Below are positions 6,301 to 29,962 of a stretch of 47,138 bases of DNA, one piece after another (the stretch's first letter is position 1; every line of letters begins with the position of its first letter). This stretch comes from Rhizaria sp. SCN 62-66 (Eukaryota). The stretch lies in the NCBI GenBank assembly GCA_001724265.1, contig MEDY01000232.1, positions 1 to 47,138 of the forward strand. Direction: 5' to 3'. The notes under the pieces are model-generated. The model was not told the DNA's origin. It did not search any database and saw only the letters and a program-made list of their open reading frames with translations. Both the position numbers and the translations under genes were made by a program.

Positions 6301-9300
6301 CCGTAGCTACGGCATGGCAGCCCCTCCCAGGGGGACCACAGGTGCAGGGAGTGGAGCAGCTGCAGCTGCTCTTTCTCGACACCATTGGCGGCATGCTCTG
6401 GAATAAGATCAGCAGCACCATTCGCATTCGTGTCGTTGCTGCTGGACAGAAAGAGAGAGTCGCCCGCGGCGCCGGCAGCAGCGCTGAGCACCCGTGCCAG
6501 CGCCGAGCTGCGCGGCATGCTCACGGCCACCGGCTGCACGAACGCGGCCGCTTTGCTGCCTACAGCCACTGCGCCAGGGCGCGCACGGGCGCGGACTGTC
6601 GCGGCGACGGGCGCGGCGGGCGCGGGCACCAGCGTGGCAGAGCTGGCAAAGCCCTGCGGCGCGGGGCACAGCGCAAACGCGGAGGCTGCGAGCGCGGCCG
6701 CGTGCAGCTGGCCGTACACGCGCGCCCACTGGCCGGCGACGAGTGCCTCTGCGTTGCCGCCCGCGTCTACGTTTGCGCTGGAGTGCACAGGGATGATGCC
6801 GGGAGCCACTAACGCGCCGGCAACTGAGGTTAGGCCGCCGCCGAGAGCGTGTGCGGAGTCTACGGCGGCGTTACGGCGTAACGCCTCACGTGCAGCCACT
6901 GCGGCGGCGGGGGACGCCGCATGCACACGCGCTGCCGCATCAGCCGCGCTCGCAGGCGTGTCAGAGCCGGCGGCAGCGCCAGAGTCCGTCGCTGTCGGAG
7001 CGGCTGCAGCAGCGGCAGCGGTGGCGAGGGCGTGGATGGCGCTCGCAGTGGTCGTGGCAGCGCGCGCGGCCGCGGCGTCCGCGGCAGCCAAGTCGCCACT
7101 CATCGCCAGCGCAGCCGCAGCCGCCGTGTTGACGAGTGACGCGGCACTGACGCTTAGACCTGAGGCGCTCGCACTCGCGGAGAGCGCCGCCCCGAGCGCG
7201 TCCAGTGCGGCCACAGAGGACCCCGCGCAGCCGTCGGCCGTCGCCGCGGACAGCGCAAGTCCCAGCACCAGCGCAGGCGCCGCCGCGGGCGCGACGCGGG
7301 CGCCCGCCGCCGCCAGCGCCGCCGCCGCGGTCTCGGCCGCGGGCGCCAGCGCGAGGAGCTTGGCCGTCCACGCGTTGACGCCCGCGCCGAGCAGCAAGTC
7401 GCGAGGCTGCGAGTGCGCCGAGAGCCAGCCGGGGGTGCCGGCGGCGAAGGCGGCGGCCGCGGCCGCGGCGGCGGTCGCGGCTGCGGGCAGCTGCAGCCCC
7501 GAGAGCAGGGCGCGGTGCGCGGCCGCGGTGAGCAGCGCGGCGCGCAGGGCAACGCCAGCGCCGACGGCGGCGTTGCTGCCGCTGTCAGAGTTGCTGTTTG
7601 TGATCGAGGTGACGCCCGTGGCGCGCAGGGCAAAGGGGAAAATGCGGTACTCAGAGATCACTTCAGCTGCAGCGGTGTTGAACGCAGTGGTAGCGACACG
7701 TGAGTGAATGCGTTCATCGTGCTGCTGTGTGGTCTTTGAGGCCGACGCAAGCGGGCCCTTGGTGGCAGCGGCGAGTGCCCAGCTGCCGTCGCCGGGTAAG
7801 TGTCCCAGCACCCTTAGAGTGTCTTCGCGGAACACTGCGCGCGCGTGCGTGGTCGCCGTCGCACGTACAGAGGGCGAAAAGAGCGCCGCCACTGCGTCGC
7901 CAAGCAGTTCGAGGCCGACAGGCTCCCCAGCGGCGGCGGCAGTTTCGGGGAACGAGTCGGGAACCGGGTTGTCGCGCCCGGGAATGGCGGCAAGCGCGCC
8001 GGACTCGGCGAACCTGGCCGTGTCGGTCAGCCGCTGCAACGCGCCGCCGCCTTCGCGCCCGCCGTCGCCGGAAGCTAGCACAGTCGCCAAGACCGGGTCG
8101 CCGCGCGCCACGGCCTCCGCCGCCGCCTCGGCCGCCAGTCGCACCGCTGGGGGTAGAGGGGGTGCGCCGCCCCGCGCGCGCGCCGCGGCCGTGCCGGGGA
8201 TAATCGTAAGCCCGGCGGCGAGGGCCGCAGCGGTGGCGGGCGAGAGGTCCGTGAACTCGGTCCAATGCAACAGCGCCGTGAGCAGAGCGTCCGAAGCCGA
8301 TGCCAGCAACGCCAGCGCGGACTGAGCTGAGACCGCGGCCGCGGCGGGCGCCGGCGCGCGCGCAGCTGGCGGGGAGAGCAGCCGCACCAGGGCCGAGCCG
8401 GCGACGGCGGCGCCCACGGTCGAACTCGCACTCACAGTTGCGGCCGCGGAGGCCGAGGCCGAGGCAGTGCGGCGCAGAATGCGGGCCGCGACACTGGGCG
8501 GCACGAACGCGGGCGCCGCTGACATCGCGCTGTCACTGCCACCGTTGTTGCTGGCAATAACAACAGCAGTCACCGCGGCCGTCGCGTGGCGCGCAAGCAG
8601 GCGCAACGCGTCAGCGCCAGCGGCTGCGGCGGTAGTGGGCGCTGGCGCTGGCACTGCGGCGGCTGCGAGCATAGCGCGGACGCGGGCGGTCTGCCGCGCG
8701 GCCGCGGTGTCCGCTAGAAAGCGCGCGGCGATCACAGTCGCGGCTGGCACAAAGGCGACCGCGTTGGCGGCAACGCGGGACGACACGGCCGCGACGGCAG
8801 CGCTGGCGATCGCGACTGCGCGGTCAGCGCCCACGCTTGCGCTGGCGCTCGCAGTGTCAGCTTGTGATTCAGCCGCTTTGGCGAGCGTGAGAGAGAACGG
8901 CGAGCTCGCGCGCGCCCACGCCGCATCCCTGGGCAGCGCGAATGTAAGGGGGTACGCGGCCGATGTAAGTGCCCGGGCGACGGCGCCCAGCGGCAGCACG
9001 GCGGCGATGTTGCCGAACGCGCGCGTCACTGCGGTCGCGAGCAGAGCGGTGCTCTCCGCGCTGTACGCACTGCGCACGGCGCTGGCCACGCGGTCTGCGA
9101 TGACGGCGCGCGCGGCCGTCACCGCGGTCAGCACGGCGGCGCCCGCGCGCGAGCGCCAGAAGAGCGCGTTAGCCGCGTCGCGGGCTCCCTCAACGACGGC
9201 GCTGAGCGCGGCGGCGGCGGCCGCGGGCACGGACAGCGGCGCGCCGAGTGGAAGCGCAACCGAGCCGACGGGGGATGCGCGCGCGGGCACCGCCGTGAGC

Positions 9301-12300
9301 GGGCCCAGCAGCTGCGGCGGGAGCGCGGCAAGCGCGGCGAGCAGCGAGGCCGGGGGCGCGCGCGGCAGCGGCGGCAGCGGCGGACACAGGGCGGCGGCCG
9401 CGGCGTCGCTCAGAGAGCTACTCTCGTTACCAGTGCCGTTGCCGGAGCCGGTGTTGTTGCTGTTGTTGATGGTGGCAACGGCAGCGTGCACGGTGGCAAA
9501 GCACGTCAGATACGCGTCTGCCGCGGCCGCATGCAGCGACGCACCGGCGTACTTGAATCGGCCCAGAGTCGTCGCCGCAGCGCCGCGCGCCTGCTAGCCC
9601 TGCTTCGACTGCTGCGCCTGCGAGATGTTTTGCGCCGATTCGAGCCCTTCAAAGGCGCGCAGCGGGTGTTTCACGGCGTGGATGAAGTCCGGGTTGCTGA
9701 AGAGGGCAAACATCGACACCCCCACGTCGCCGCCGCGGCCCGCGCCCGCGCCCGCGCTGGCGCTGGCACTCATCGCGCTCGCGGCGACGGCCGTGGAGAC
9801 AGGGGCGTGCGCGTGGGAGCTGCGGGCGAGACTCGCGGGGCTGAGGTAGCTGCCGATAAGAGGCAGCGCCAAACCGGGCCCCAACAGGACCTCGCTCGTG
9901 CTTTTCGCACTAGCGGTGTCCAAGTTGGCGGAAAGGGTGACCGTGAGCGCTGCGGCGGTGGCGGCGGCGGCGGAGTCAGCCCAGTCCGCGAGCTGCGAGA
10001 CCGTGAGTAGGCGCGGGGTGACTGTGAGCAGCTTGAGCGCCGAGTCCGCCGCCGAGGCCTCGCTGTCGCCGGGGACGGCCGGCAGTGCAATGTGGCTGTT
10101 GTTCGCCACGCGGGCCGCCGCGAGCGCGACGGCGACGTCAACGCCGTGGGCGTTGTTGGCAGCAGCCTCGGTTTGCTGCTGGTGCTGCTTGCGGGCCTGG
10201 CGCACGACAGACAGCGACGGCGCGGCGACTGTGTCCACGGGGAGACGCTTGTAGTGCGCTTGCAGCAGCAGCGCCGCAACGGCAGCGCGGCGCACGACAC
10301 CACCGTCACCGCCACTAAGCCCACTCTTAGACTGACGAGCGGGGGCGGGTCCATGAGCAGCCATCGCGGCTGCTGCCAGCGCAGGGTCGGCTGTCGCGGC
10401 GCTGATGGCTGCCGCGACGCGAGAAAGCGCCGTCGTGAGCACGCCGTCGTCAAACATACTGCTGAGGGAGACACTTGCCTGACCGCCGGAGGATGCCGCG
10501 TCAGCCGCGGCGTCCGCAGCCGCCTCCGCGGCCTCTGCGGCAGCAAGAGCAACGGCGTCGAGCAGCAGCGGCGCAGCAGTGTGCAGGTTCGCGGGCGCGC
10601 CGCCAGCCGCGGTTGCAAGCGCCGCCGCGGCTGCGACAGCAGAGGCGGCGGCAGCCCTTGAGCGCGCGTCCGCAGTGCAGGCGCGAGCCGCGGATGCAAC
10701 AAGCCAGGAGTCTAACGGGATGCCCGTTGCAAGGGTAAGTACCCGCATCGAGTCTAAGTAGGACAGCGCGGGCAGCGCAGCGAGGCGGACGTAACTGTGC
10801 GCAGCGGTCAGCGCGGCGCTGACACGGCCACTGCCGTCACTAGAGCCACCGAGCACGCGCGAGACGCTGAGATCAGACACGGAGGAGTTTGTGCTGAACT
10901 TGCCAGTGGCAGGAGTATAGCTGAGAGCAGTCGTCGCAGGCATATGTAAAGCGGACAGCAGCTCACTGACGTCACTCCCAATCTCATTCACACTATACTG
11001 GGACGGCGACTGCAGCGTTGAGGGCTTCGGGGCAAAGCGGGAGCCTGCGGCGAGAGCAGCATTGGTGGTCGTGACAATGACAAGGCCCTTTGCCTGGGGC
11101 CAGGCGCGGTCAAACGACCACTGCTCACGGTCACTCTCAGCCTCCGCATCAGTTTCGTTCTCCGAGCCCGACTGCGCCTGCGCCTGCGAATCACACCGAC
11201 AGCGTGCGGCCACAGTCGCCGCCGCGTCGCGCGCAGAGACGGGCGCCGTGAGTGATAAGGGAGCAGGGAACAAAGGCATCGTCGAGAAACCCTTCGAGAA
11301 ACCAAAGCGGCTTGCGAATGCGTCATTCCCAGCAGTCTTAGTGACGTTACCGCTGCTCATAGCAGCGAACGCCGCACTGCATTCATCATGAGTCGGCTGT
11401 GGCATGATAAAAGTCAAACCGCCACACTTCGCCCTGCTAATATTGCTAAACGTGGCATTCGCTTGCTTTGACTTCGCAGACACAGACGCGGAGGCAGTAG
11501 TTGTGCCGCGGACGCCGCCCGCAGACTCGACGATCGAGACCATTTCCGCGGAGTCGGCGCCGTCGAACACCAGCGTCCACGACGGCAGCGTCAGTAGATA
11601 CGCGTTCAGCACGGCCGCGGCCTCACGCAGGCTGAGCGCGCCGGCGCCCGAGGCGGGGCCGTGGGGGCCGGTGCCTGTGGTCGCCGTGGCCGCGGCGGCG
11701 GCGGCGGCGGTGATGCCGGGGGCGGAGGACAGCGCGCCGCTGCCGGCTGCGGCGGGGGCGAGCGCCAGGTAGTCGATCAAGGCGAGGTACGAGGATAGTA
11801 AGGAGGCGGGGGAGTCGGCGCTGAGCCAGAAAGACGGCGACGACGGCAGCACAAAGTAGTGGTGGTACACGCCGTCACCGTCGCGGGCGTTGCACTGCTG
11901 CTGCTGCTGCTGCTGTGTGTCGGCGCTGTCGGTAATACGCCGCGTCGCCGTCGCCGTCTTGAAGTTAGGCCGCTCCGCAAAGGGCGCGGTAAGCGCGTGC
12001 GCGACGAGGCTAGTGCGGCCCGAGCCCGCGTCGCCGGCGACGTACACGACGCGTGGCGCGGCGAAGGCGGCGGGGCCCGCAACAGGGGCGGTCATCGCAA
12101 AGAAAAAAGAAGACAGGGGCTCGGTGCGGCCTACGAGGGCGCGGGCGGAGGCGGAGACTGCGGCGGTCGTGTCCGCAGTGAAGAATGACGAGCTCGTGCT
12201 GGCATCGCAGTGCGTACTGCTCGAGTTGAAGGTTGGATTTGCGGAGAGACTGAGACCATTAAAGAGAGACGTTGTCATCAGAGCCTGCGCGACCGTGACC

Positions 12301-14486
12301 GCGTCGCTCTTGACAGAAGCAGCGGTGACGCCATGCTGTACACTGGTTTCGATCGCAAGAGTGCGAACTGCATTTACGAAGCCCAATTTCTCGGAACCGT
12401 GTCCCCGGGTAGCGGTAATGTCAGAGACAGTGTTTGCCACGACCACTGCCGCTGCCGCCGCCGCCGTCACACTGGCGCTGGCGCTCGAGCTGAGGCCCTC
12501 GCTGTGACCGTGGGCGTAGAGACTGTGGGTAAAGTGACTGTGAGCGAGCGGGGGCAGCGCGGGCGTGACGCCGGCGGGCAGCGAACCCGCCGCAGCAGTC
12601 AACGCAGCCAAACTGGTGCTCGCAGCCACGCTGTTGCTATGCAAAGCAGCGGCATTCACTGCGGCAGCGGAAGTTAGGAGCGCGTCAGCTATCGACTCAG
12701 TCTCAGCAACGGCATCACCAGCGCTGCTCTTGCTCTTACCGCTGCCGCCGCTCTTGGCCTGACTCGCCCCAGAGCCAGTCCAATGCGCCCATAAACTGTG
12801 GCCACCCTCATTGCCGTCGTCCACCGACGAGGCCTGCTGCCGCCAGTAAAACGACTTGCCGGCGGCTTTTTTGGGAACCGCGCGCCACTGAGGCAGCGGC
12901 AGCGCGTATTGCAGCCACTCCGCCGTAGTTTCCGCCGCCGCGGTGGCCGCAGTCCAGGCCTCGTAGCCGTGGGGCTTAGGCGCACCAGCTGCAGCTTCAC
13001 CACTGCTAGACTTCGACTTATCAGCGGAATCATTCTCGCCAGCAGATGTAAGTGCCCCGCTGCCCTCCTGCCTAAGCGTCCCTAGCGAACGCAGCACCGC
13101 CGCGATCACGCCCACGGGCGACACGGTCGCGCTCGCGCTCTCGCCGGTACTCGTGACACGCGTGACCGTAATGGTGCGCGCGCCGTTGGCCCCGCCAGTC
13201 AGCGCCCCGCCGCCGCCGCCGCCCACGGTCGTCTCCGCCGTCGTGACGGCCGCGAACGCGGCGCCCGCCCACTGCGCGGGCGTGGGCGCGGCGACGACTG
13301 TGAGGAGCGCTAGCGCAGCGGCGAGGATGGCGGCCAGCGCGAGGTAGGGCGTCGTGGACAGGTTGCTGTCGCCATGGCGGCCGCCGTGGCGAGGCTCCTG
13401 CGGGCGCGGGCGCTGCCGCCGAGCGTCGCCGTGGCCGTGGCCGTGACCGTCATCATCTTCGTCGTGGCCGCGGCTGTGGCTGTGCCCGTGGCCGCCGCCG
13501 CCGCCGTGGCCGTTGTGGCCGTGGACGTGGCCGCGGGTTTGGGCCGCACTGTAGTTCGGCGCCGAGGAGGAGGCCGCCCCACGGCTGCTGCTGCTGCTAC
13601 TACTGCCGCTGCTAGCCCTGCTGTTGTTAGCAGCTGCGGGAGGGCGGCTGAGACCGGCGGGGGTATTCAGACGACTATTCGCATTGGTGGCGCCAGGACG
13701 GGCGGCGCTAGAGCTACTTAGAGACCAATTGTCGGCGCGATGGTCCATGCCCCTAAGATCCTCCTCGTGTAAGGGCGCGACGGTGTGCGGCCGCGCCTGT
13801 CCCAGTCCGGGCTGCCGCGCGCGCGCAACCAGTTGCTCAGTGTCATTGTCATTATGGCGACCGGTCGCGTGTCCATTGCTATTGACAGTGCTCCGTGCAT
13901 TGATGCTGGCAGTGACGACGCCACTGCGGCTGTTCGTAGTATGGAGCCGCGAGTTCGAGTTGCTGTTGTTGTGCGGCGCGCGGGCAATGAGGGCCGCCGC
14001 GGCAGCGGCAGCGGGCGTCAGAGTCAGCGCCAACGGCTGCGGCAAAGGCTGTGTCCGCGGCTGCGCCAGCGGCTGCGCACGGGCGTTGGCGCCAGAGTCA
14101 GCGGCAGTACCGACAGAGCGGACGCTGGCGGCCTTGGCGGCGGCTGCGGCGGCCTTGGTAGCACGCATCAGCGCTATGGACTTCACCGGGCCCGCCGCGC
14201 TGTCGGTGGTCGAGTCGTTCGCAATTGCAGCGGCGGCAGAAGACTCGTCAGCGCAAGCAGCGGTGTTCAGTGTATCTTGGGCGCTGCCGTCGTCGTCGTG
14301 GTCGCTCTCTTGCAGCAACCCTTCCCAGTCCTCTTCCTCCTCGCTGGCGTACGCATCTGCGCTGTCATCATCGTTGGCAGCGTCAGCGCCAAAGCGAGCA
14401 GAGGGCTCGGACTCAGGAGCAGGCTCGGGGGGGCTCCCCGCCGCGCCCCGGGTGATTGGGGCGACGACGACGGCGCGCGGAGGCAT
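3306..14486 (-). CDS. Very large Ala-rich protein (~3,726 aa when the in-frame TAG at 9596-9594 is read through) with an N-proximal TM helix, a degenerate NB-ARC/STAND P-loop domain and a TPR-like C-terminus
   Basis: ORFs 9594..14486 and 3306..9491 share a frame and are separated only by one TAG plus 34 sense codons (SKQG*QARGAAATTLGRFKY...). Motifs VYVAGDAGSGRTS, FWLSADS, WTLVFDGAD, GLVIVTTT, GGAPANL and C-terminal LGGPQHPTA. Ends TAA. Confidence 0.7.
5188..5232. repeat. Coding tandem repeat, 15 bp x3 (GCAGCCTTTGCGGCA), encoding AAAKA repeats
   Basis: Directly visible three-copy repeat within the minus-strand CDS. Confidence 0.8.
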
Positions 14487-14797
14487 TCAAAAACAGCACA
14501 GTGAGGGAGCAAACAAAGCAACGGAGGAAATTATGTTCGCCTCAAAGATTTCTAGTTCTGTGTGTGTACAGAGCAGAGTAGACGCGAGAACGCGGCTGAG
14601 GCGGCGAATTGGTGGTGGCAGAGATTCGAGAGAAGCAGCGGAGTTTGGTGAGTTTGAAAACTGGGTTAGGATCCGTTGATAGCCACATTTGAAAAGATCC
14701 AAATAGAAAGGCGAAATATGCGTTTAATTTCCAAATTATGATTCCAGATACCTCACTTCACCACGTCAAATGTATCTTTTTCAGCCGGTCTCGAGCA
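14487..14797. promoter_or_regulatory. Short divergent (head-to-head) intergenic region, probable bidirectional promoter
   Basis: 311 bp, lower-GC spacer between start codons at 14486 (-) and 14798 (+). Confidence 0.5.
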
Positions 14798-17700
14798 ATG
14801 CTTGGCGCGCTCCAGCTCGCCCCCGCCGGCCCCGCTCCCCCGCCGCCCCCGCCGCCGCTCTTCGTCCTCCGCGGCCATCGTTCCGACGTCACCAGCGTCG
14901 AGTTCTGTGACTTGCCTTCCTCCTGGCTGCCCACACACTCCGCCTCGGCGCGCCTGCGCGACGCCACAGTGCCCTGTGTAGTGTCCGGCGACGGCAACGG
15001 CCAGGTGACGCTGTGGGACCTCCGCACGCGCCGCCCGCTGTTGTCCTTTCTCGCGCACAAGTAGTCGGTGCTGCACGTACGTAAGACCTTACCATGCACC
15101 CGCTTAACGTGTATTACATGCCATTCATCCTCATGCGACTGATATATCTACTTGTTTTCTACTCGACACTTCGCTGTCTCACCCCACACTTTGTCTTTTA
15201 TTATTGCGACGTATCCACCCCACAGCTCTCGGTCCCGGCCTCCGCACAGTGCCACATTCTGCTCTCGCAGGGCAAGGAGGGCGGCATCTCTCTCTGGTCC
15301 CTCCCCAAGCTGCTCGCCCTCATCGGGTCGCACACTGCACCTCCCTCCTCCGGCGAAGCCCCAGCAGCAACAGCAACAACTGCAGCGGCCTCTGCTTCTG
15401 CTTCTGCTTCTGCGAGTGCGAGTGCTCCTGTGACCGCGCCCGCGCCAGTGGCACGCCCGTCTGCGATGATTCGCCGCAAAGCCAACGTCGCCGCTGCTGC
15501 TCCAGCACTGACCTCCAGCTCTGGCGCCACCGCGTCAACCGCCGTGACCGCCGCCGCCGCCGCCTCGGCGACGACTGCAGTAGCCCTGCCTGCTGCCGGC
15601 GCGGCCGCGGCGGGCGCGCGCGAGGCCGCCGCGCGGTGGCTGGTGTTGTCGACCGGCGTCGCCGAGCCTGCGCGGCTGGCGCGCCTGACCACCAACGCCT
15701 ACGGCTTCCTGCGCTCACACCTCGTCCTCGTAGACACTATCCGCGTCGACAGTGTCTACGTCGACAGCGAGCCCGGCCCGCAGAGCGCGGGCGCCGGTGA
15801 CAGTGCGAGTCGGCGGAGAGCGACAACGCGGCTGCAATACCTGCTGGCGACGCCTTCGGAGCACGCCTCGTCGGTCAAGGTGTGGCGGCTTGACTTCGAT
15901 ATCACTCTCTCGAGCTCTGCCGCCGCGACACCCGCGACAATTGGCACGGCGTCCGCTGCGAGCGCGAGCGTGATCGACAGCTCGGTGGCCCTGGTGTCGT
16001 CGCAGCTTGTCAGCACCGTCACGCTGGACCCGCCCAACCGCCCGTTCGCGCCCACGGAACGCACGGTGCTAGATCACGACGCCACGACCCTCAGCACCAC
16101 CGCCAGCGCAGCCGCAAAGAAACCGATCACTACTGCGCCACAACAACAACAACAGCAGCTCTCGCCAACTGCGCCGAGCAGCACTGTCGCGGTGAGTTCG
16201 GGCGCCTTTCTACCGCCCGCGGCACCCTTGGCGACGGCGATGGCGCTGGGTCTGTTGCCCGCCGCGCCGCGGCCGCTGTCTACCGCCACGAACTACGCCT
16301 ACCCGTTGCCACCCGCTGCCTCCGCCGCGGCCTCCGCAGCCGCGCTCGCGACTAAGGCTGCTGCCAAGACCGCAGCCGCAGTCGCGGCCGCCGTGTCCGC
16401 CGCCTCTGCTGCCGCTGCCGCAGCCGCAGCCACGGGGGGCTCGCTGCGCGCGGCTGCGGCCGCGGCTGCGGCAGCTGAGGCTGCCGAAGCTACGGCCGCG
16501 GCTGCGGCCGAGGCCGCTGCGACAGCTGCCGGCGCCAGCGCCGTGGCCGCGGCCCGCGAGTTCGGCGTCGCGGCGACGGGCCGCGCGATCACGGGCGCGG
16601 GCAGCGCCTCGGCCGCCGCGGCGCGGGTCTTGGTGCGGCGCCATCTGCTGCTGCAGTCGCTGCCCCACTGTGTGCGCGCGAGCAATGACTGCGACGCCTG
16701 CCATAGCAACGATGGCAGCGACTCTGTTCGCATGAAGGCTGTGGCGAAGGTAAGTCAAGCCGCGTCCGCTGGCGTCGTGGCCGCGCTGACGAGCGGGTGC
16801 GAGACGGCCGAGGACGGCGACCTGCGCCGCCGCCGCGCCAAGGCGATGGCGCCCTTTGCCGCGGCGACGACGCTGACGACCCTGGCGACCCCAGCGGCGC
16901 AGCGGCGGCCGCTGGTGCCTGCCGCGCCGCCCCGCGCGCCGCTGCCCGCGCTGACGGCCCAGTCCGCGTTGCTGTGGCAACGGGCGCGTGCAGAGCGGGA
17001 CAGGGACGCCGACGGGCCCTGGGTCGCGCTGGCGGCGCTGCAGTCCGCCGCCGCGCTCACGGCCGCTATCAACGCCAATACAGCTACATCCGCCTCTGAT
17101 GCAACTACTGTTACAGCAGGTGTTGGTGCTGCTGCTGCTGGCCGTGGTTTGGTGACGATGAGTGCGGGGCCTATGCTTGGTGCAGCGACCGACGCGGCAG
17201 TGAGCACCCTCGGATACACTCGGAACCGCGGTATCGCGCTGCCCAGAGTCGCTTGTACAGCGATGACTGCAAAGACACAGGGATCAGCAACATCAACCGC
17301 AATAGCGACAGGAGATGCAAGTGCGGCACAGTGCTCTGAGACCTGTGTGAGCGACCCTGAGGCGATGTTTTGGGACTGCGACATGATGAGTTCAGAAACA
17401 GTCTCAAGTGCACTGACACTCAATCCCCACATCCGTCATTGCGGTTCTTCTGCTGTCTCCGAGAAGACAAGCCGCGTAGCGACTACTTGCGCTGTTGGTG
17501 GTGCCAGCAGCGGCGGCCCACGACCCCTCGTCCGCTGGCCCGGCCAGTCTCCTGACTGCGACTGTCCCGCCGCCGCCGAAGCCGCCGCGGCCGCCTCTGC
17601 GAACGGGCTGCCCCCGACCGGCGACGGCGACGACGAGGACGGCGTCGGCAGCGGCAGCGGCAGCGGGCGCGGGCCCAGCGCGGCCGGCGATGAAGGGGAG

Positions 17701-20457
17701 GAGCAGGGCGCGGCGAAGGGGTACGGAATGGTGATGGCGTGCGAGGTCGCGGCTCTGCGCTTTCCATTGCCTCATCATCTTTGCGACATCAACGGCGCCA
17801 ATCAGCCACAGCAGCAGGGTGACCGGGGCGTCGTCGTGGTGCTCTCGGTCGCCACCGAGAGCGGCCACGTGCTGCTGTTCAACCTCACGCCACCGCGCAG
17901 GCAGCTGCTCACAGTTGCCACCGACGCACCCATAGCCGCGAGTACGACGGACGCCGGCAGCAATTGCCTCGATGCGATCAAGAGCGGCGATGCGAGTCGT
18001 GCGACTTCTGGTGATGACGCTGTTTTGGTCGCCAAAGAATCAGGCCTAGGAGCGGCGTTGCGGCGCCAGCGTGCGTTGGAGCAAAGTCAAGCCGCCAGTC
18101 GGGATGGCCAAAGTCAAGCCGCATCCGCGACTGGCAGCACGCTTGTGTCACAGCGCGCCGTGCAGCTGCAGCCCGCGGTGCTTGCTGTCCCGCAAAAGCC
18201 GATCGAGACAAGCACATGTTCAGAGTCACCTGAGTCTGCGCAGGCGGCGCGGTCAGAGGAAAACTTCACAGTGTTTCCAGTTGTGACTGTTGGGCTGCCC
18301 CGCGTTGTCACCGTTGCGGCAACATCCCCCCAGAGCATTGCCGTCACTGCTGATGGACCTATCTTTGCTGTAGTGAGCTCTGATACGAGTATTGATGCGA
18401 CCATTAGTGCCAACCCAGACAGCAACGCTGCTTTTAGGGTCAATGCGGGCATCTCGGCACTTCAGAAGCGAGGTACGCTCTCATCAGCTCTTGCTGCAGC
18501 TGTTAACAACAACACCACCACCAACAACAACAGTGCCGCAAGCGCGAATGAGATAGAGACGGAGAATAACGATGCGATGGCTCGCGAGGCCTCGCTGCTG
18601 CTGCCCCAGCTTGTCTGGCGCGGCCGTCTGGCTAAGGGACCCCTTACATCCCTCTCGTCCTCAGTCTCCCCCCTAGACTCTACGCAGAACCACAACAGCT
18701 ACGGTGGCCACAAGAGCGCCGCCCGTCGTGAGAGCTTGCCCACAGTCACCCAGACTCCGCTGTCGTGGCTTGGCCTGACGCTGTACGCCGCGGGCGCAGG
18801 CAAGCGCGTGACGCGGCTTGACTTCGAGGTCGCCTCTGAACCCGTCTTTGTCACGACCCCCGCCTCGCACACGGCGAGTGCTTCCCCCATTGCACCGGTA
18901 GTGGTGCCTGTGACGGACTCGCTCACTGCGAACATAGCGGCCATCACGAGCTTATCCGCGTTAAGCAATCCTTCGCCTGTGCAGCCAACACCTGTCCCGA
19001 ATGCGTCAGTGGGCGTGACTGGCCGCTTCGAGTCGTCTCTCGTCCAGCTGGGCCTGACTCGCGCCGTCGCGACTCTGCTGCCTCGCCCCGGCGTCGCCGA
19101 GCTCACAGTCACCCCCGTGCGCACAGTCACCACGAACAACAACAGCAGCAGTAGCAGCAGCAGCAACAACAACAGCAGCAGCAGCAGTGTCAAGGCCAGC
19201 ACCAGTGCGGCTGCGAGCGCGATTCGGTGGCGTGACCAGGACGTCGTCGCTGGCGCTGGCTGGGATAAACGCGTCTATCTCATCAAAGGACGCCACTACC
19301 GCCGCTCTCGTCGCAGCCTTGCAGTGCCGCCACGCTTTTCTACAGCAACAGCAGCAGACAGCGCAAGTGCAGGTTCCGGTCGGACCGGCGTTAACGCCGA
19401 GTTTTCGGAGTTCTACCGCTCACTGTGTATCCCGCCGTTCGGCGCGATTGGCCCCGCTGCTGCGGCTCCTGCAATTGCCCGCGCGAGCGCTGATGCGGGC
19501 GACACAGAGCGCGGCCCCCTAGTCCCGCCTATTGCAATCGCGTGCTGCCTGCGTGCGGAGGAGGCCCTGGGGCTCGACAAGCCCTTCGCAGCCCCGCGCT
19601 GCCTCGTCGCACCCCCGCGCCCGCCTCAGAGCGGCTTGAGCGCTGCCCCGGAGGATGACAACGCTGCAGCAGCGCAGACGCAGTGGCTGCGCGAGGTTGA
19701 TGCTGTGAGGAGTGCTGTGGTTACCGGCATTGCGCTACCCCAAGCACGGCTGCTAAACCGGTTCCTGCAACATTACGACGGCGGCGACCGCACGAGCATT
19801 GACACAGAGCAGCCCCAGTCATCGTCAGATTGGGCTGCCCTGAAGGAGGCTGCGGCGACAGTGTTTGGCGTTGCTCTTGCGTTTAGCAGCGATGAGACCG
19901 ATGGAAGCGCTCTCCCTAGCATTAGCAACGACAACCCTGATGGTGAGGGAGATAGCGACGTCAATGCGACCTCCCAACCCTCTTCTGCCCTTGCCCTGTA
20001 TCAAAGTCAGGCCGCGTCGGCTGCTGCATACCAGTGGGCGCTGGGCGAGCGCGGCACGGTCGCCGACGACGGCGTGAGCGGGCTGGCGGGTGTGCTGCGC
20101 GAGCACACGGCTGGCGTCGCCGCAGTGCGCTTCCGCAAGCACCGCCGCGTCGGCGCCGTCGTGCGCGAGGGCGCTGCTGAGCGGGCGGTCGTGGCTGTGG
20201 CCGCAGACGGCAGCGCTGGCGCTTGCGATGCCGACTCAGGGAGCCGAGCCGTGACTGCAGGCAGCGGCCGGCTGGTGACTGTGGGGGGCAGGACGGTGAC
20301 CGTGGGCGACGGCACTGCATCCGCGACCACTGGCGCCGGCGCCGGCGCTGTGCAGCTGGAGAGGGAGGCTGGGGACGAGGTTGACTGGAGTCGGGGCGGG
20401 TACCTGGCTACGGGCGGCCGGGACGGCGTCATCAGCATCTGGCAGCCCTACGGCTGA
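14798..20457 (+). CDS. GNB1L: GNB1L/ASA1-like WD40 protein with very large low-complexity insertions; exons 14798-15076 and 15226-20457; ~1,836 aa; in-frame TAG at 15062-15064
   Basis: Ordered family-like motifs: PPPLFVLRGHRSDVTSVEF, SGDGNGQVTLWDLRTRR, LLSQGKEGGISLW, GMVMAC, ESGHVLLF, PGVAELTV, AGWDKRVYL, GVLREHTAGVAAVRF, LATGGRDGVISIW. Intron 15077-15225 (GTACGT...CACAG) is phase 0 and joins the two frames. Ends TGA. Confidence 0.82.
15077..15225 (+). other. Spliceosomal intron of the WD40 gene (149 nt, phase 0)
   Basis: GTACGT donor matching the other introns, pyrimidine-rich body and CACAG acceptor. Splicing restores WD40 continuity (SVLH/LSVP). Confidence 0.85.
19135..19187 (+). repeat. 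AAC/AGC trinucleotide tract encoding NNNSSSSSSSNNNSSSSS
   Basis: Directly visible within the WD40 CDS. Confidence 0.75.
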
Positions 20458-20824
20458 GAACGTCGCGAGCGATATGAGTCGAGTACAAACTGCAACGCAA
20501 AGTGGCTTTGGATAATTCTACGATGCCCACTTGAAGAAGGAAATTTCAAAGTTATTTATATTTATTCACAAGGACCAAGCGCAATTCGCGCGTTACATAG
20601 ACGATACAATACGTAATTTTGGGTTAACTTCGTGGCTGCGGTTCTTACTGTGTTGCCACTTGAACAAGAGCGGAAAATTGAAGTTTGGAGTTAGCCTTGT
20701 TTAAGGATCGTAGTAGGACTTACCATATGTCTAACTAAGCTGAATCAAACGCATTGCTTCATCGTTTTTATTTTGTTTTGTAGTGCGCGAGTAGGTTCGA
20801 GTTTTTTCGCATCTCTTCTCGCCA

Positions 20825-22531
20825 ATGCTTCCGCCATCGCGGCGGCTTCAGCGCCTTTCAATTACGCCAATAGGATTAGCTATCATTTTACTTGCACATC
20901 TGTGCTTCCTTCAAGTTGGCGCAATGCCACTGCGGGTTCACAAAGAGCTTGAGGCATCGACCGATTTGTTTTCAAAGCGGCACCCGAACAAGCCTGCATC
21001 GGCAACAGTGACAACAACCAGCTCTCGCCCACCAAGCACTAATCAGCACAACTTAGAGCAAGAACAAACATTGAAAGCATCCACAACTAATGATGGTACC
21101 TACTTTAATAGGCTACGCCAAGAACATGCCTTGCGCGCATCTATGCTGCCGTTTTTACGTCACTATTCTCTTCACGATCACGGTCATATGCCAGCAGACT
21201 TGTTTCACCCGAGCGCATCGTTGTTCCACTCAAGGCTGCTGTCGTTTCAACCCTTAGTTCGACTCAGGGGACCGCGGGCTATTCCGATCAGGCATAGCAG
21301 CCCCACTGTGTCACACACTGCATACATGCACTCTGTTGCACTGAAGGCAAAGGCGCGCACAATGCTGCGCCGTACAGAACTGTCCAGCAGTATAGTTAGT
21401 GCAAATACAAGCCAGAACGGAGTTGATAATCTCTTGGTAGCTGTTGGCATCGGACACAGCAAAGCTGCATCGCTAGCGGATTACAACAGAAAGAAAACTG
21501 TTTCTGTCCTGTCCCGCGCTCTATTGCGCGTGACGAAAAAGCCAACGTTCCCATGGCTACCAGAGGCGAAGCCGTTCACACGCACTGCGAAAAATGATGA
21601 CTCTAACGACGAGTATGACAGAGAGATTGTCAGGTTTGTGAATGAACTTGTGGCCCACTTAAAAGACCTTGAAACCAATTACAGCTACAAGAACAAAAAC
21701 ACTGATAACGAGGCACGCGTTGTTGCGTTATCGTCACCATTATTCGCACAAACGGATCGTTACAAAACAAGTTTCAAAAAACAAACTTCTTTAAACATCT
21801 ACACCTAGAAAAACATTTGCACCAAGAAAAACGCGCTTGATTTCACGTCCAGCTCAGCTAACACGTGTAAAAGCCCACACATGCGCGAAAAGAGCACGAT
21901 TTCAAGTCCAATATGGCTAACTCTACCATTGACACAACAAGCTGCAGCCGCGCTTACCAACACCCATTTACTTTTTCCAGCCTTATCGCTGCTGTTCCAA
22001 AGACAGAGGCAGAAAAAGGGCAGTCTTGAAGGCGTAAAAGAAAAGAAGGCATTGAAACACCCGCTGGACCTTCAGCGTTTATTGCGTCGACGTCACAGCT
22101 TACGTGCCGCATACACGCGTTTCCTGACCGTTACTGCGCCGCGGCTGCAAGATCGCCGCAATCGTCGCCGCGCGATTGCAACACTTCTAGACACCATTGT
22201 CTCCAATGCGCGCGCCACAGAGCACATCCACAGGCGTGTCGCTGCGTACAACGCACTTATTCAGCGCATCAAAGCCCCTGTCGTAACCGTGAGCAAAGCG
22301 GCGTTTGCGACTGAGGCCGACGCGGCAAAGGCGGCGCAGGCAGTCATGCTCGCGGCGGTGAGGGCTGGCGCGGCGGCGGCGGCGCGGGGCGTGGGTGCGC
22401 TGCCGAGCTTCATCGCACACGCTGTGGCCGCCGAGGAGCGGTTAAAAGACGCGAATAGCGATGTGAGGAGACAGAGACAGCGGGTGATGGACCATAGAAG
22501 GGCACAATTTCTGGTCTTCAGCGCACAGTGA
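20825..22531 (+). CDS. Hypothetical basic protein with a signal-peptide-like N-terminus; ~568 aa if the TAG at 21806-21808 is read as sense
   Basis: ORF 20825..21808 ends in TAG, followed by 24 sense codons in frame with ORF 21881..22531, which ends TGA. Hydrophobic segment IGLAIILLAHLCFLQVGA near the N-terminus. No recognisable domain. Confidence 0.55.
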
Positions 22532-22944
22532 TTGTGATGTCAGAGAATGCAATGGAAATTCAATGAACATGCATGCAATGGTGATGATTTGAGTAATTGC
22601 TAACATGAGCCAACATTTAACGCGGATTGGAGATGTGGTAGCAAAACAAAATTTTGTGATTGTATTGCTATTTTCAAATGTCGTATTGATGAGCGCACTA
22701 GAGGCGACACTGGTATTGAAACATGCGACATTTGTGCTGGCCTGAAGCTCCATCATGTACGGTAAAGTTGCTTTCGCGATCGTGGTTAAACACGATATTC
22801 AGAAGGAAATCGAAAAACAAAAAATAAAAATCAGGGAATCAATTATTATGAAATACAAAAATAGTGTTAAACACATACAAATACACAAATAAAGAAGATA
22901 AATCACGAAAAAAGTTGTTTCGTTTCAACGTGTCACTCAGCAGC

Positions 22945-24816
22945 TCACTGCTGCAGAGGCCGCAGATTGCCCGCGGCCTCGTTCTCCATGAACGCATTAA
23001 TCACCGCCGTGGCCATCATGCGGAAGACAACCGTGCGCAGCAGTCGCCGGTCGCTGCGGAAGGACTGCGCGACGGGGGGCGGCGGCAGGACCGTGAACCC
23101 CCCGCCTGCTCCCATGCCGCCTCGGCTGCCCGCAGCAGTCGCGTTGCCGCCGCTGTTGCGGCCAATGGGGCCGTAGGCGCTCGTGGCCGCCGCAAGGGGG
23201 TTTACAGCAGGCTTGGCCACTCCAGCGGCGGTCGATGGCTCTGCCTGAGGGCGATCGTTGATGCCGTCAGCATATTCGGCGCCGTTGTCGTCAACAGAGC
23301 CAGCGTCGTCACCCTCACCGTCGCTGCCGTCATCGTCGTCACTGTCAGTGTCGGCATCACCTTTCCTCCCAGTCTTCGCAGTATCAGTCTCACGCTCAGG
23401 CGCAGGCTGAGAGGCACCGTTCCGACCCACAGTCTTTGGCCCACTCGGAGCGCGTCCCCCGGTGCCGAGCGCTGCCATCCGCTTTTTGGCAGGCTTGGGC
23501 AGCAGCGGCAGCAGCCCCGTGGTGACAAGCCGGGCCAGGAACGCCTCCGAGTCGGCCACGAACCGAGCCGGCTAGGTGTAGAAAAACCCATGCGACCACT
23601 CGCTGCCGCCCCTGCCCCTGCTGACCTGAGACGCCGCTGCGCGGGCCGCCAGCGCGCCGCCGCCGGCCAGCCGGGCGCTCACGCTCACGGCACCCGCGCC
23701 GCGGCCGATGTGGAGCGGCGTGTCGCCGTCGATGCTGCTCGTAACGACCAACCCGCCGGCGCCGCCGCCAGAGCCGCTGCCGCCAGAGCCGCCGTCACCG
23801 GCCGTGCGCGGCACGTGGGCGAACCGCAGCGCGGCCTAGAAGCTCTGCTCCGGGATAGCCAGCGAGCTGCGGAGCGCGCGCGCCTGCTGCAGCGCGCGCT
23901 GCGCGAACTGCGCGTCCTCTGACTTGGCCTCCGCGTCAACGACAAAGGTGTCAGCGCTGCTGCTGCTGTTGTTCTCTAAGGAGAGACGGCTGAGGAGCCA
24001 CTTTTTGGGGACTTGTTGCGCTGTTTTGACCGCGGCGAAGGGGTTCACACAGTCGCTCGGCGCGTCCGTCAGCTCGGACTCATCTGCTGCAGCGCTGTTG
24101 CTGTTAGCGCGCCAACTGTTAAACGTGGGTAAGTACCCCCTTAGATGCACGGGGTAACCGTGGGCGAGCTGCTCGAGCACTGAGCGCCACGCCGACAGCG
24201 ACGAGTGCGCAAACCACCGCGTGCGGCGGCACCCCTCGCTGTGCTGCCCGGTCTGCGCCTGCACCTGTGCACTGTTCTGCGCGTTGTCAACGTTGTCAGC
24301 GCTTGGGTCAGCGCCGTCGTCGTCATCGATGCCGCCGGCGACAATGCGTGCGTAGACGTCGTCAAGCCTCACGCGCAGCATCGCAGCCTTGGTCGCGGGG
24401 CTCCAGCGCCCGCACGCAGAGCAAACGGGATACGCGACGTTGCTAACGTTCGCAGCAACGTCCTGCGCACGAGCGTCGTCAACGCTAACAGGGTTGCAGC
24501 GCGCGCAGGGCACGGAGCGCCAGACGGTGGCGAGGTCGTCGCCGTACTCTTCGAAGAAACAGCGGAATGTGAGCGTCTCCTGCTTGAGCCGCGAGCGCAG
24601 CAGCACGCGGTCGCGCCACATCGTCTCCAGCATTTCGGGGGGCCAGATCGAGTGCCTCAGCGACGCCACGGCGTCCGTGTCCACGTCCGTACACTGTGCC
24701 ATGTGCGCCGCGGTGGCCTGCGCAATGGAGGTGAGTCCACAGCAGTCGCAACCGCCGCCGAGCACGGAGTCGGTGATGACGCGCTCCTCCACCCACTGGT
24801 CGCTGTAGGAGCTCAT
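22945..24816 (-). CDS. Hypothetical protein, ~623 aa, with N-terminal CDCCG and two CxxC pairs; two in-frame TAG codons (23838-23836, 23574-23572)
   Basis: ORFs 23836..25011, 23572..23814 and 22945..23559 lie in one frame and are separated only by single TAGs. Likely start ATG 24816 (MSSYSDQWVEER), where the sequence shifts from AT-rich to GC-rich. Ends TGA. Confidence 0.72.
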
Positions 24817-25154
24817 TGACCTGCGACCTGAATACATAAAAAGAGAAAATAAAAGGAAATAAAACGTTGGTATACTAGGGTACTTCAGAATGTAATAATG
24901 ACGATCACAAATGGTGCTGTTGATGCAACGAGATCTTGTGGTGGACGGTGACCGTGAGCAACGGCTCGGCGCCCGACCGAGAAGACCGTTTCTCCCCGTC
25001 CTAAGCCCCAAACTTTGGCTTTGCTATACGAGATAATTCTTCGTAATCAGGAAATGCGAGTCACACTGTGTATTGGCGCTATCTATTTCTTTGTTGAATT
25101 TTAATCAGTTCCTCTCACTCCCCAATCTACCCCTGGATTTGCACCTCGCGCAGG
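24817..25154. promoter_or_regulatory. Short divergent intergenic region, probable bidirectional promoter
   Basis: 338 bp, lower-GC spacer between start codons at 24816 (-) and 25155 (+). Confidence 0.5.
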
Positions 25155-26733
25155 ATGGCCGAATCGGGCTACTACGACATCCTTGGTCTTCAACGGACCA
25201 GCACCAACAACGAGGTCAAGGATGCTTTCCGGAAGCTCTCCCTCAAGTGGCACCCCGACAAGCACGACGACAAGGCTAAGACCCTTGCCGAGCAGAAGTT
25301 CCGCCAGATTGCCGAGGCCTACACCGTCCTTTCCGACCGTACGTTGCAACCCCAACTCTCTCCTCTCGCTGATCAGTTTCTGTCTCGCCAAGGCCAAGAA
25401 TCGTTCATTTGGGTTGAATTTTTTGTGTTTTGTTATGGTTTTATTCATGATATATTGCCGTGCGCTGGTTGTGTTTTGTCCTCTTGCTCTACTCATTCTT
25501 TGACCCAACTGTCTTTCAATCACCACCTCTGCATCTGCACCTGCTCATCACCCTTTGCGCTCCCTCACCCGCACTTACGCACACACTCGGTCCACCCTTA
25601 CAGTGCGTCTCCGCGCCCGCTACGACCAGTACGGCATGGGCGGTCTGACTGGCGGCGAAGCTGGCTCTGCTGCAGGCGGCGGTACGTTCCCTTGCCCAAT
25701 CCTCTCGCTTCTCCTAGTCACATCACTTTAACGCTCTGACTGACCCTTTAACAATGTCCAGTCACATCGAAATCAAACTATATTGTAGGCATCCTTATAT
25801 CCCCGTATTTTAACTTGCGCACCTCATTGTTTCTTTCATATCATGTCATATTCGCATTTGTTTTCTGCCCGTCACAGAGTCCACGTGGACCTTCCAGGAG
25901 GACCCGCACTCTGTCTTCACCGCCTTCCATGGCACGGCCTCGCCGTTCGCGGCCGCGCTGTCGACGGAGCTGCTGTTCCGCGACCCGCGCGAGGAGAAGC
26001 AGCCCCAGTGCCCGCCTCTTGAGGTCAACCTCTACCTCTCGCTCGAGGAGCTCTACCAGGTACGCTTGTTTACAACCAACGAACAATAACACGCATCCGA
26101 AGAGCTATATCGAGAGCTGTTGAGTCGGAACTAAGCATTTACATTTTTACTATGTTAAGATTATTATTTTTGCTAAGTATTTTACGAAGTATTTACCTTG
26201 TTCTTATCATTACGCATTTTGTTCTTCTAATTCATTTCCAGGGCGCGTCCGTCAAGGTCAAGGTGACCCGCTCCGCGCTGCAGCCCAACCTGACGACCAC
26301 GGCCCCCGAAGACCGCATCCTGACCGTGGCCGTGGCGCCCGGCTGGCGCGCCGCCACCAAGCTTACCTTCCCCGGCGCGGGCGATGAGGCGGCTTCACTT
26401 AAGGCGGGCGACGTCGTGCTCACGGTCCTCGAGAAGCCGCACCCGCGGTTTACGCGCGTCAAGAACGACTTGGTGCACACGGTGACGCTGTCGCTGCTCA
26501 AGGCGCTGACGGGCACCGTGGTCGAGGTGCCCACGCTGGACGGACGCGTGCTGGCCGTGCCCGTGACCGACGTCGTGTCCCCCGGGTACGTCAAGATCGT
26601 GCCGGGCGAGGGCATGCCTGTCAGCGGCAAGGAGGGCAAGAAGGGGAACCTGCAAATCAAGTTCGACGTTGTGTACCCGGCGGCGCTGAGCATCTCGCAG
26701 AAGGAGAAGCTCGCGCTCATCCTGCCGCAGTAA
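25155..26733 (+). CDS. DNAJB13: Type II Hsp40/DnaJ protein, DNAJB13/RSP16-like; exons 25155-25338, 25604-25681, 25878-26059, 26242-26733; ~311 aa
   Basis: J-domain (YYDILG...KWHPDK...AEAYTVLSD/LRLRARYDQYG), short G/F linker (WTFQEDPHSVFTAFHGTASPF), LYLSLEELYQG and DnaJ C-terminal domain (PGWRAATKLTFPGAGD, VPTLDGR, PGEGMP). Three GTACG(T/C)...CAG introns splice in frame. Ends TAA. The subfamily call is less certain than the DnaJ call. Confidence 0.85.
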
Positions 26734-27282
26734 GCAGAGCGCGCGCAGATGATGCGGATGATACATGAGAGACTGGGGCGTTAGTAGATAGCGACGCCAG
26801 TCCGGAATGAAAATGAAAATCACATTATAACACACACGGTTACGTTAGCTTTTTTACACGGTACAGAGACAGGTTTCACTGTTATAAACCAAAATAAACC
26901 ATATTTTGCACACAATATCTCGATCTCAACTCTAAATGTTGTTGTCACACGGATTTATCTTCGCTTTTGATTGTTCGTTGCTGCGTTACTATCGCGTGTC
27001 CGCTCGCGGTGGCGACTCGAAAGGGTCAGGCTGGGAGACGTAGCAGGCAATATCTGAAATGACTCAGAGGGGCAGGACTTCCGACAGTGACCGTGCCACA
27101 AACATATGATATTAAATTCTACGTATTATTTTATCATCTTTCTTTTTTATTTTAACGTCGCTCATCGACTTGAGATATCTTCTGTTTCGTTCAACCCCAT
27201 TGCGCTCACGTTTGCCCCCCCGTTGCTCTCTCTTCATCCTTGCGCTCTACACCTTATCATTCACCAAGACCCGTCCCGTGCG

Positions 27283-28665: not shown

Positions 28666-29962
28666 GTGGCGCCGTGTGCGATGTGAGAGGGATGAGAATA
28701 AGAACGTTTTGTGACGCAGGGCGGTCGCTCGAGTTTTGAATAGCCGGTCGGCTTATTAGTATATATCGATGTATTATGTATGCAGTTTGTAGTTATACCA
28801 GAAAAATGAACTTTTTCAAAAGGTTATTGTCAGAGCGCAATAAATCACACACTTAAACGATCAAGCCCTGTCGGGTGCATCTGTGACACGGCGCCGTCCC
28901 TGTCGGCCGTGTGGTATGATGTACTGAGATGATATTAGAACCAGCGACTAAGAGCTTCGACAACACGCCGTTTGACGTTGAGCAGCTCCAACACTTTGAG
29001 GCGCAAGGATAGTATTGAGTGCAATCCTCACGTGAGCGTGTCGATCGTAGATTTTAAGTTTCTGTACTAACAGAGTATTGCAGTCGGTGAAGAGGACTAA
29101 GTAAGCTCGAACTACAGCTCACGCGGAAGCAACATTTTGAATACATAAGAATAATCTTGTATTGCTTGTTTTGATCGACTTCACAATCTCTATCACGCAC
29201 TGGAGGACGCAAAACGAGCTTGTTGGTGTTCTACTAAACCACTCCAAAATATAAGAGAGATTACTGATTAATACATGTACAACGTGCGAGAGTGAAAGAG
29301 GATAGCAAAACATGGTATCGTCGAGTAAGAATACTGCAAGCGACGAGTTAAAAATAAAGTCGAACAAGTCCCACATGAACACTAGAGCTCACACACGCAC
29401 GCGAGTTAGCAACGTAGGTACGATGAAAAGCTGGTGATCATATGTTACCTGTTAAGATTAAAACTATATCTGCGTCAATACACAAGCTACGTGCATGTAC
29501 GGGGAGATACATGCGCGCACGCAGTCGTGCACAACAACAAATCTAGCTTAGAACAGCAAAAATAGGATGACGCAAAGATACAAGTCAATGCATAGGAGCA
29601 AAGACAAGGCTATGATTTAACGGCAAACTAAACTAAAAATAAAAATATTACGATAATACGAAAATACGGACATAAAAATCCACATAAGCGAAGATAAAAA
29701 GGATAACATGTTTTGGAATATTTTTCATGGAGCTCACCTCTGCGATGCATGCTCAAAAGCTCGCGAACAGTCGCTGCAATTGCCACTTACATCCAGATCG
29801 CTTCATTTCACATCATGGCACAGTCAATATCACTGTGACTGTGCCTCATATTGTGGAGCGAGAAAATCCTCGACCAGGCCGCTTGCCAGCCACGCCGGCC
29901 ACGGATCCTGACCCACTCAGGCCTGCAAGGGCTCCATTGACGAGCATCGTACTTTTACAAAT

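Follow-up and report, generated by a model that had tools for sequence, protein, structure and literature searches.

The stretch of DNA analysed here (contig MEDY01000232.1, 47,138 nucleotides, called the window below) is nuclear DNA of an uncultured, GC-rich and intron-poor eukaryote from bioreactor and wastewater metagenomes, in which UAG is probably read as an amino acid and UAA and UGA are the stop codons. The proposal concerns five in-frame TAG codons, T1 to T5, which a preliminary description of this DNA had taken as the sign of a non-standard code. All five are present, with the coordinates and strands listed here together with the genes and open reading frames (ORFs) that contain them:

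9594–9596, minus strand: T1, in-frame TAG in gene B, joining ORFs of 1630 and 2095 codons
15062–15064, plus strand: T2, in-frame TAG in exon 1 of gene C, in the context ..LSFLAHK-TAG-SVLH followed by an intron
21806–21808, plus strand: T3, TAG between the two parts of ORF D, whose status is uncertain; periodicity of the GC content at third codon positions (GC3) missing from the flanks
23836–23838, minus strand: T4, in-frame TAG of gene E in a column of conserved Glu, within the motif E-x-x-F-[TAG]-x-x-L-x-F
23572–23574, minus strand: T5, in-frame TAG of gene E, adjacent to an F-T-[LVIM] motif or part of it
3306–14486, minus strand: gene B, 3726 codons, Ala/Ser-rich; TAA at 3306–3308; split into 1630 + 2095 codons under translation table 11
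14798–20457, plus strand: gene C, WD40-repeat protein; exon 1 at 14798–15076, intron at 15077–15225, exon 2 at 15226–20457; ends in TGA
20825–22531, plus strand: ORF D, 327 codons + TAG + 240 codons; ends in TGA; signal-peptide-like start, atypical composition
22945–24837, minus strand: gene E, 630 codons, conserved eukaryotic family without a name; TGA at 22945–22947

The nuclear and eukaryotic character of the window is indicated by its GT-AG introns, by its very long ORFs (from 1744 codons up to more than 5724) and by AT-richer intergenic spacers. Its GC content is 65–74%, genes reach 11–17 kb, intergenic regions are several kb long, and GC3 lies between 0.72 and 0.96 in all confident coding sequences (CDS). 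Recognisable genes include a sterol 24-C-methyltransferase (SMT), a DnaJ protein, the WD40 protein with its huge Ala/Ser-rich insert, a DENN-like protein and a giant protein with Sushi, REJ and GPS domains.

T1, T2, T4 and T5 lie in firm coding sequence, whereas the coding status of T3 is doubtful. Coding-like composition had been described as continuing past each of the five TAGs. This is borne out at T1, T4 and T5, where the frame is unbroken on both sides and GC3 amounts to 0.73–0.93 in the 60-codon flanks against about 0.5–0.75 for the first and second codon positions (GC1 and GC2), and at T2, which is part of a WD40-encoding exon 1; it does not hold for T3, whose flanks are described below. 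Around T1, in-frame GC3 stays at 0.77–0.93 across 450 nucleotides on each side (0.88 upstream and 0.77 downstream). A model with two separate genes at this site was ruled out, because there is no AT-rich spacer, unlike at the other gene boundaries of the window, and the next in-frame ATG lies 307 codons downstream, with a GC3 of 0.83 in the interval. A homology search around T1 gave none at E <= 0.01 among 8000 candidates scored, a candidate list that was probably swamped by low-complexity words, and the evidence at T1 is ORF continuity and GC3 alone.

T2 is located 4 codons ahead of GTACGTAAG, the donor of a GT-AG intron with its acceptor at 15225, and exon 2 follows in phase 0. The resulting protein, ..LSFLAHK-TAG-SVLH|LSVPASAQCHILLSQGKEGGISLWSL, is a WD40 repeat, which read across T2 runs as AHK-TAG-SVLH|LSV...LLSQGKEGGISLWSL. 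WD40 alignments with PDB entries pass through T2, AHKxSV being paired with GHQSAV, and T2 falls at a variable position of the repeat. Between the first repeats and the C-terminal WD-like end (..GGRDGVISIWQPYG), exon 2 (15226–20457) encodes more than 1500 residues of Ala/Ser/Thr-rich low-complexity sequence; Pfam gave no family for this exon at E <= 0.01.

Homology that extends across the TAGs is found in gene E, in which T4 and T5 connect ORFs of 395, 87 and 208 codons. In a word-indexed protein library gene E has a single homolog, P0133, which BLASTP aligned over gene E residues 10–446, spanning T4 and T5, and again over residues 576–618 at 60% identity. An exhaustive profile search of 1.84 billion representatives returned 96 matches (P0133–P0228). 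Two of them, P0134 (326 aa, up to T4) and P0135 (204 aa, from after T5), are the window's own gene E pieces, cut at the TAGs by a gene caller that uses the standard code. The family is characterised by an N-domain with GGxCxCCG and W-P-x-E, a middle motif E-x-x-F-E-x-x-L and a C-terminal motif QSFRSDRRLLR; many members, of about 300 aa, contain the N-domain and the C-motif in one protein, and T4 and T5 are located between these two conserved parts. In an 18-row alignment (MAFFT auto) the invariant residues F593, D596, R597, R598 and R601 all lie downstream of both TAGs, and at the T4 column, with 17 homologs aligned, Glu is found in 12 of the 16 that have a residue there. A second alignment (L-INS-i) contained 70 homologs of at least 200 aa, drawn from the 94 matches that are not the window itself, with the 24 shorter ones left out. 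Here T4 occupies exactly one column of E-x-x-F-E-x-x-L, filled by Glu in 57 homologs, Ala in 6 and Gln in 2. The T5 column is the aliphatic position of F-T-[LVIM] in 64 of the 70 homologs (L 33, V 18, I 8, M 5), the window having one extra residue (Y). The placement of T5 depends on this indel: BLASTP and L-INS-i put it in the aliphatic column, and MAFFT auto makes it an inserted residue. Since each TAG takes up one residue column, T4 can be neither in an intron nor at a gene boundary. All 10 of the clusters looked up consist of environmental proteins without a name, the best feature score in the ESM Atlas with P0134 was 0.75 with TM <= 0.30 and gave nothing usable, and Pfam returned no family for gene B, ORF D or gene E.

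Independent sequence data were available as Logan contigs of four runs (X3, X4, X5 and X7), which were aligned to positions 9000–28900 of the window. All or part of the window is contained in runs on metagenomes from bioreactors, wastewater and activated sludge (nine rows of 6 studies, 2015–2025); X3 is DNA from a study other than the likely source, X4 is DNA from a third study, X5 is a polyA metatranscriptome and X7 consists of cDNA contigs. X3 contigs at 9399–13097, 14309–16360 and 21519–24101 cover all five TAGs with zero differences at them. X4 contigs cover T2 (14427–15299) and T3, both unchanged. Among the RNA contigs, those of X5 at 9550–10007 (T1) and 23273–24040 (T4 and T5) show zero differences and no joint, and an X7 contig at 21731–22117 covers T3 unchanged. 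Stretches for which X4, X5 or X7 has no listed contig, such as T4 and T5 in X4 or T2 in X5, are uninformative either way. Because DNA and RNA contigs carry the same letters, the TAGs are not assembly errors, minority alleles or editing sites, and RNA editing was dismissed as an explanation on these grounds. That spliced RNA of the organism exists follows from an X7 contig that skips 26056–26237 and thus lacks the GT..AG intron of the DnaJ gene, and the X5 signal probably comes from RNA and not from carried-over DNA, because X5 depth is zero over 20952–22279 (most of ORF D), a region that the DNA runs do cover. T1, T4 and T5 are not spliced out in the RNA contigs seen.

These data bear directly on the view that the TAGs are artefacts of the gene models, lying in unrecognised introns, in untranslated regions or between neighbours in the same frame, with none in a mature CDS. 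T3 does lie in sequence without the coding signature of the genome, T2 could be skipped through an alternative donor, and TAG is a common intron end in relatives, for instance ahead of the SMT and Rab exons of the related locus L007. But T4 and T5 fill single columns in conserved motifs with homology directly on either side, polyA-RNA contigs cross T1, T4 and T5 without a joint, and T1 is followed by neither a spacer nor a start codon, which makes an artefactual origin of all these codons very hard to credit.

The use of the three stop codons in the window is in line with a sense meaning of UAG. In the five intron-free CDS (12,112 codons), TAG occurs 3 times in frame and TAA and TGA do not occur; off frame, the same sequences contain 17–61 TAA, 37–58 TAG and 194–231 TGA. 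With exon 1 of the WD40 gene (93 codons, 1 TAG) and four DnaJ and DENN-like exon segments (661 codons, no stops) added, the sum is 4 TAG, 0 TAA and 0 TGA in 12,866 codons. The absence of internal TAA and TGA from the gene models, reported in the preliminary description, is thus confirmed; the large ORFs (1744–5724 codons) are also free of interrupting frameshifts. In-frame UAG is found at about 0.3 per 1000 codons; even the least used of the ordinary sense codons are about six times as frequent. All six frames were also screened for stop codons flanked by coding-like sequence (10 TAG, 3 TGA, 0 TAA), but this screen was rejected as a control, because most matches are antisense in-register frames of GC3-rich genes, in which a sense CTA is read as TAG. 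The features other than genes B, C and E and ORF D that supply gene ends, and the DnaJ intron mentioned above, are as follows:

631–1575, minus strand: SMT, main exon; TAA at 631–633; Sterol_MT_C at residues 251–310 of 314
26060–26241, plus strand: DnaJ intron, spliced in RNA; mapped as 26056–26237, four ambiguous bases (CCAG) allowing the shift to GT..AG
26731–26733, plus strand: terminator TAA of the DnaJ gene; DnaJ_C at residues 72–219 of 236
28663–28665, plus strand: terminator TAA of the DENN-like gene; sub-threshold SPA match only
29963–47137, minus strand: giant ORF (more than 5724 codons) encoding Sushi, REJ and GPS domains; TAA at 29963–29965; zero in-frame stops

All eight gene ends are TAA (5) or TGA (3), as had been noted, and none is TAG. 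For SMT and DnaJ the stop falls at the C-terminus of the family, as claimed earlier; the labels GNB1L (gene C) and DENND10 (the DENN-like gene), for which the same had been said, are backed by sub-threshold WD40 and SPA matches only. The ORF at 27091–27996 ends in TAG, but by a frame that runs into an intron, and no other coding-like ORF in a sense frame ends in this codon. If TAG made up an assumed 20–25% of stops, its absence from eight termini would have a probability of about 0.10–0.17, so that this absence is supportive but weak evidence.

Taken together, the occurrence of the TAGs in independent DNA, the unspliced state of T1, T4 and T5 in polyA RNA and the homologs that extend across T4 and T5 uphold the earlier proposal that UAG is translated and that UAA and UGA terminate, with the exception of T3 as a doubtful witness. 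Several observations weigh against this reading. The sample is small, a single window of 47 kb with 4 firm TAG codons and 8 gene ends. The flanks of T3 are not coding-like, with GC1/GC2/GC3 of 0.52/0.45/0.49 upstream and 0.60/0.50/0.60 downstream. At T2, an alternative in-phase donor, CAG|GTGACG at 15004/15005, could skip the TAG at the cost of the WD motif, and the contigs that cover T2 are DNA, none being listed from RNA. X5 is an RNA library, but its contigs cannot prove the transcription of a given stretch. The tRNA with a CUA anticodon that a sense UAG leads one to look for was not found among the sequences searched: tRNA genes number 0 in the window and 0 in nine related loci, and the window has no Rfam matches. 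A gene for eRF1 is likewise absent from the window. In the related locus L007 one ORF ends ..KCCTIA directly followed by TAG, that is, with a CaaX-like box and an apparent true stop; this relative therefore probably uses the standard code, and the UAG trait would not be common to it. The encoded residue is a further difficulty: T4 favours Glu, whereas T5 in two of the three alignments favours an aliphatic residue such as Leu, and the two sites cannot be reconciled by any one residue. By itself T4 does not discriminate between the readings, because a nonsense change from GAG to TAG also lands on a conserved Glu column. Finally, random single-base nonsense changes in the codon usage of the window, calculated from a codon set that included one 165-codon DnaJ segment out of frame, produce TAG in 61–64% of cases, owing to the prevalence of codons ending in G or C; that all four are TAG then has p of about 0.15, and the exclusive use of TAG is therefore weak evidence on its own.

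The last two points are those on which an explanation by ordinary nonsense mutations would draw, in which the TAGs are null alleles or young pseudogenes fixed in the population and the downstream parts are untranslated: most random nonsense changes here yield TAG, and T4 stands where the ancestor had Glu, GAG being one step from TAG. Such an origin needs four independent events in three genes, without a single frameshift, TAA or TGA in about 12,900 codons. Coding periodicity is intact downstream of the TAGs, the invariant residues F593, D596, R597, R598 and R601 of gene E are kept, the same sequence is found in the DNA contigs of other studies (X3 for all five TAGs, X4 for T2 and T3) among runs dated 2015–2025, and the genes are present in polyA RNA. 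Nonsense mutation is accordingly an improbable account of the four codons.

Somewhat less improbable, though still unlikely, is that UAG remains a stop codon and that these genes make use of programmed or leaky readthrough, or of a position-dependent double meaning, without a genome-wide reassignment. Position-dependent double meanings of stop codons have reportedly been described for some ciliates and for UAA in Blastocrithidia. The rarity of in-frame UAG (4 in about 12,900 codons) agrees with this idea, near-cognate decoding would explain why no one residue fits both T4 and T5, and an 11-mer common to T3 and T5 is a possible context signal. However, readthrough would have to be extraordinarily dense, with four sites spread over 3 of about 8 genes in 15 kb, 2095 codons would have to be made past the stop at T1, and TAG terminates none of the eight genes. 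The codons directly after the five TAGs (CAG, TCG, AAA, GCC and CCG) provide no common downstream context, and upstream only T3 and T5 share a sequence. This shared 11-mer, TCTACACCTAG (x-Tyr-Thr-TAG), occurs at 21798–21808 on the plus strand (T3) and at 23572–23582 on the minus strand (T5), its only two exact copies in the window; one copy with 1 mismatch, TCTACACCAAG (Val-Tyr-Thr-Lys), lies in SMT at 1519–1529 on the minus strand. In 100 shuffles the mean number of matches with at most 1 mismatch was 0.17 and the maximum 2, and the sharing could be due to chance or to a context preference.

ORF D, in which T3 is found, lies in a 2.5-kb AT-richer stretch (20458–22944) between two convergent genes. 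Its length of 337 codons (595 with TAG as sense) exceeds that of all 500 dinucleotide shuffles (maxima 309 and 323). It is thus too long for chance, yet it does not carry the GC3 signature of the genome, and it may represent a recently acquired or fast-evolving gene.

If UAG is an amino-acid codon in this organism and UAA and UGA end translation, a tRNA with anticodon CUA, or a much weakened recognition of UAG by eRF1, would allow a residue to be inserted at UAG. A young or inefficiently decoded reassignment would fit the data, because UAG is so rare in frame. As to the residue, Gln is poorly supported by the alignments (2 of 70 homologs have it at T4, and it is absent from the residues listed for T5), and a near-cognate or ambiguous decoding of UAG is possible. 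A more specific version, which we put forward tentatively and consider rather less likely than not to hold in full, is that an unplaced, non-ciliate wastewater lineage is at an early stage of UAG capture, with UAG either meaning Glu while UAA and UGA terminate, which would make it a so far undescribed code, or being decoded ambiguously, as a Glu-like residue at one site and an aliphatic one at another.

Reassignment of UAG alone in nuclear codes is described in the reports consulted for a handful of lineages (PMC5304391, PMC11687900). The rhizarian exLh is presented as reading UAG as Leu with UAA and UGA as stops, and 71 of its genes contain 384 in-frame UAGs (Panek et al., 2017, PMC5304391). 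As in exLh, UAG would be the only sense stop codon in the organism of the window and the other stops are kept, the organism is a protist, probably not a ciliate, known from sequence and not from culture, and Leu is suggested by T5; by contrast, UAG is frequent in the exLh data as reported, against 4 in about 12,900 codons in the window, and T4 stands on a Glu column. With respect to kinship, the chlorarachniophytes, which are rhizarian, are among the best named SMT matches (62%), but the SMT clade of the window is entirely environmental. For Iotanema spirale (Fornicata), UAG is given as Gln and UAA as a stop (PMC5304391), a UAG-only reassignment with UAA retained that resembles the present case as far as that description goes; Gln is poorly supported at the TAGs of the window, however, and the SMT, the Sushi/REJ/GPS protein and the very high GC content show no affinity to metamonads such as the anaerobic Iotanema, a comparison made on these traits and not by a direct test. 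In phyllopharyngean ciliates, UAG is reported to mean Leu or Gln as the result of three independent events, with UAA as the preferred stop, widespread sense UAG and suppressor tRNA(CUA) genes as the proposed mechanism (McGowan et al., 2024, PMC11687900). Like the window, these cases, as reported, combine reassignment of UAG alone and a preference for UAA with a discovery in metagenome-derived assemblies; they differ from it in that sense UAG is widespread in them and rare here. With its length of 47 kb, intergenic regions of several kb, genes of 11–17 kb and 65–74% GC, the contig is in addition presumably unlike ciliate macronuclear DNA.

Glu as the meaning of UAG, to which T4 points (Glu in 57 of 70 homologs), would match Blastocrithidia nonstop, described as reading UAA and UAG as Glu and UGA as Trp; in that code as described UAA is reassigned as well, whereas in the window 5 of the 8 genes end in UAA and none contains it in frame. 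Peritrich ciliates are said to read UAG as Glu with UAA also reassigned, and another ciliate reportedly combines UAG as Glu with UAA as Lys. To our knowledge, Glu at UAG is known only where UAA has been reassigned too. Overall, the case in the window probably works in the manner of exLh and Iotanema, and differs from them by its very low UAG usage, its high GC content and its unplaced, probably non-ciliate lineage.

A UAG code of this kind would add a GC-rich, probably non-ciliate lineage to those with UAG-only reassignments, and each further case bears on the question whether the evolution of UAA and UAG is necessarily coupled. With UAG still very rare, the early steps of codon capture, that is, whether a suppressor tRNA or a change in eRF1 comes first, would be open to direct study, and an ambiguous decoding of UAG, if true, would represent a natural 'ambiguous intermediate' in the reassignment of a stop codon. 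In practical terms, genes of this organism are mis-annotated in wastewater metagenome catalogues, because gene callers cut its proteins at TAG in public libraries. The literature searched contained zero reports of such a code in a eukaryote from activated sludge or wastewater.

The placement of the organism was approached through SMT. Its best named matches are those of chlorarachniophytes (62% identity) and ichthyosporeans (57–61%). A maximum-likelihood tree calculated from 36 SMTs assigns that of the window to a clade with 9 members, all environmental (support 99/97), which is a weak sister (82/79) to the ichthyosporean and chlorarachniophyte SMTs; because this is a single gene and the root is a midpoint root, the tree places nothing firmly. 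A scan of genome contigs for SMT gave only homologs from bacterial metagenome-assembled genomes, at 35–43% identity, and no eukaryotic relative. In metagenome contigs the sole locus with 100% identity (L001) is a 2.4-kb piece inside the window that adds no flanking sequence. SMT ends in TAA in seven loci (L001–L004 and L006–L008), whereas in L009, the most distant locus, the terminator is TAG. Among the seven, L001 is sequence of the window itself and L004 is a match to L007. The relative represented by L005 and L007 (SMT 77% identity, GC 0.53) has genes for CFAP300, a Rab, Tim17 and a kinesin, and the presence of CFAP300 indicates that the organism of L007 is flagellated or ciliated. Two ORFs of L007 (1496–3475, minus strand; 4238–5869, plus strand) suggest that TAG is a stop there: the one with the CaaX-like end KCCTIA described above, and the CFAP300 ORF, which has a TAG 6 codons ahead of a TGA. 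Two contigs of a further relative (SMT 83–85%), L002 and L003, are distinguished by a block that lies between ..DKDNAR and RAVYTKTTE. One of them is genomic and the other spliced, and this difference locates an SMT intron, which is also present in the window upstream of 1575.

Two observations concern the right-hand half of the window. A polyA-RNA contig of X5 at 25188–25460 (plus strand) matches only from its letter 108, its first 107 letters mapping elsewhere. Position 25188 is inside the modelled J-domain coding exon, and either the 5' gene model of DnaJ may be wrong or the X5 contig may be chimeric. The giant ORF at 29963–47137 on the minus strand is single, intron-free and open at the end of the window, and its domains form a polycystin-1/REJ-like receptor architecture.

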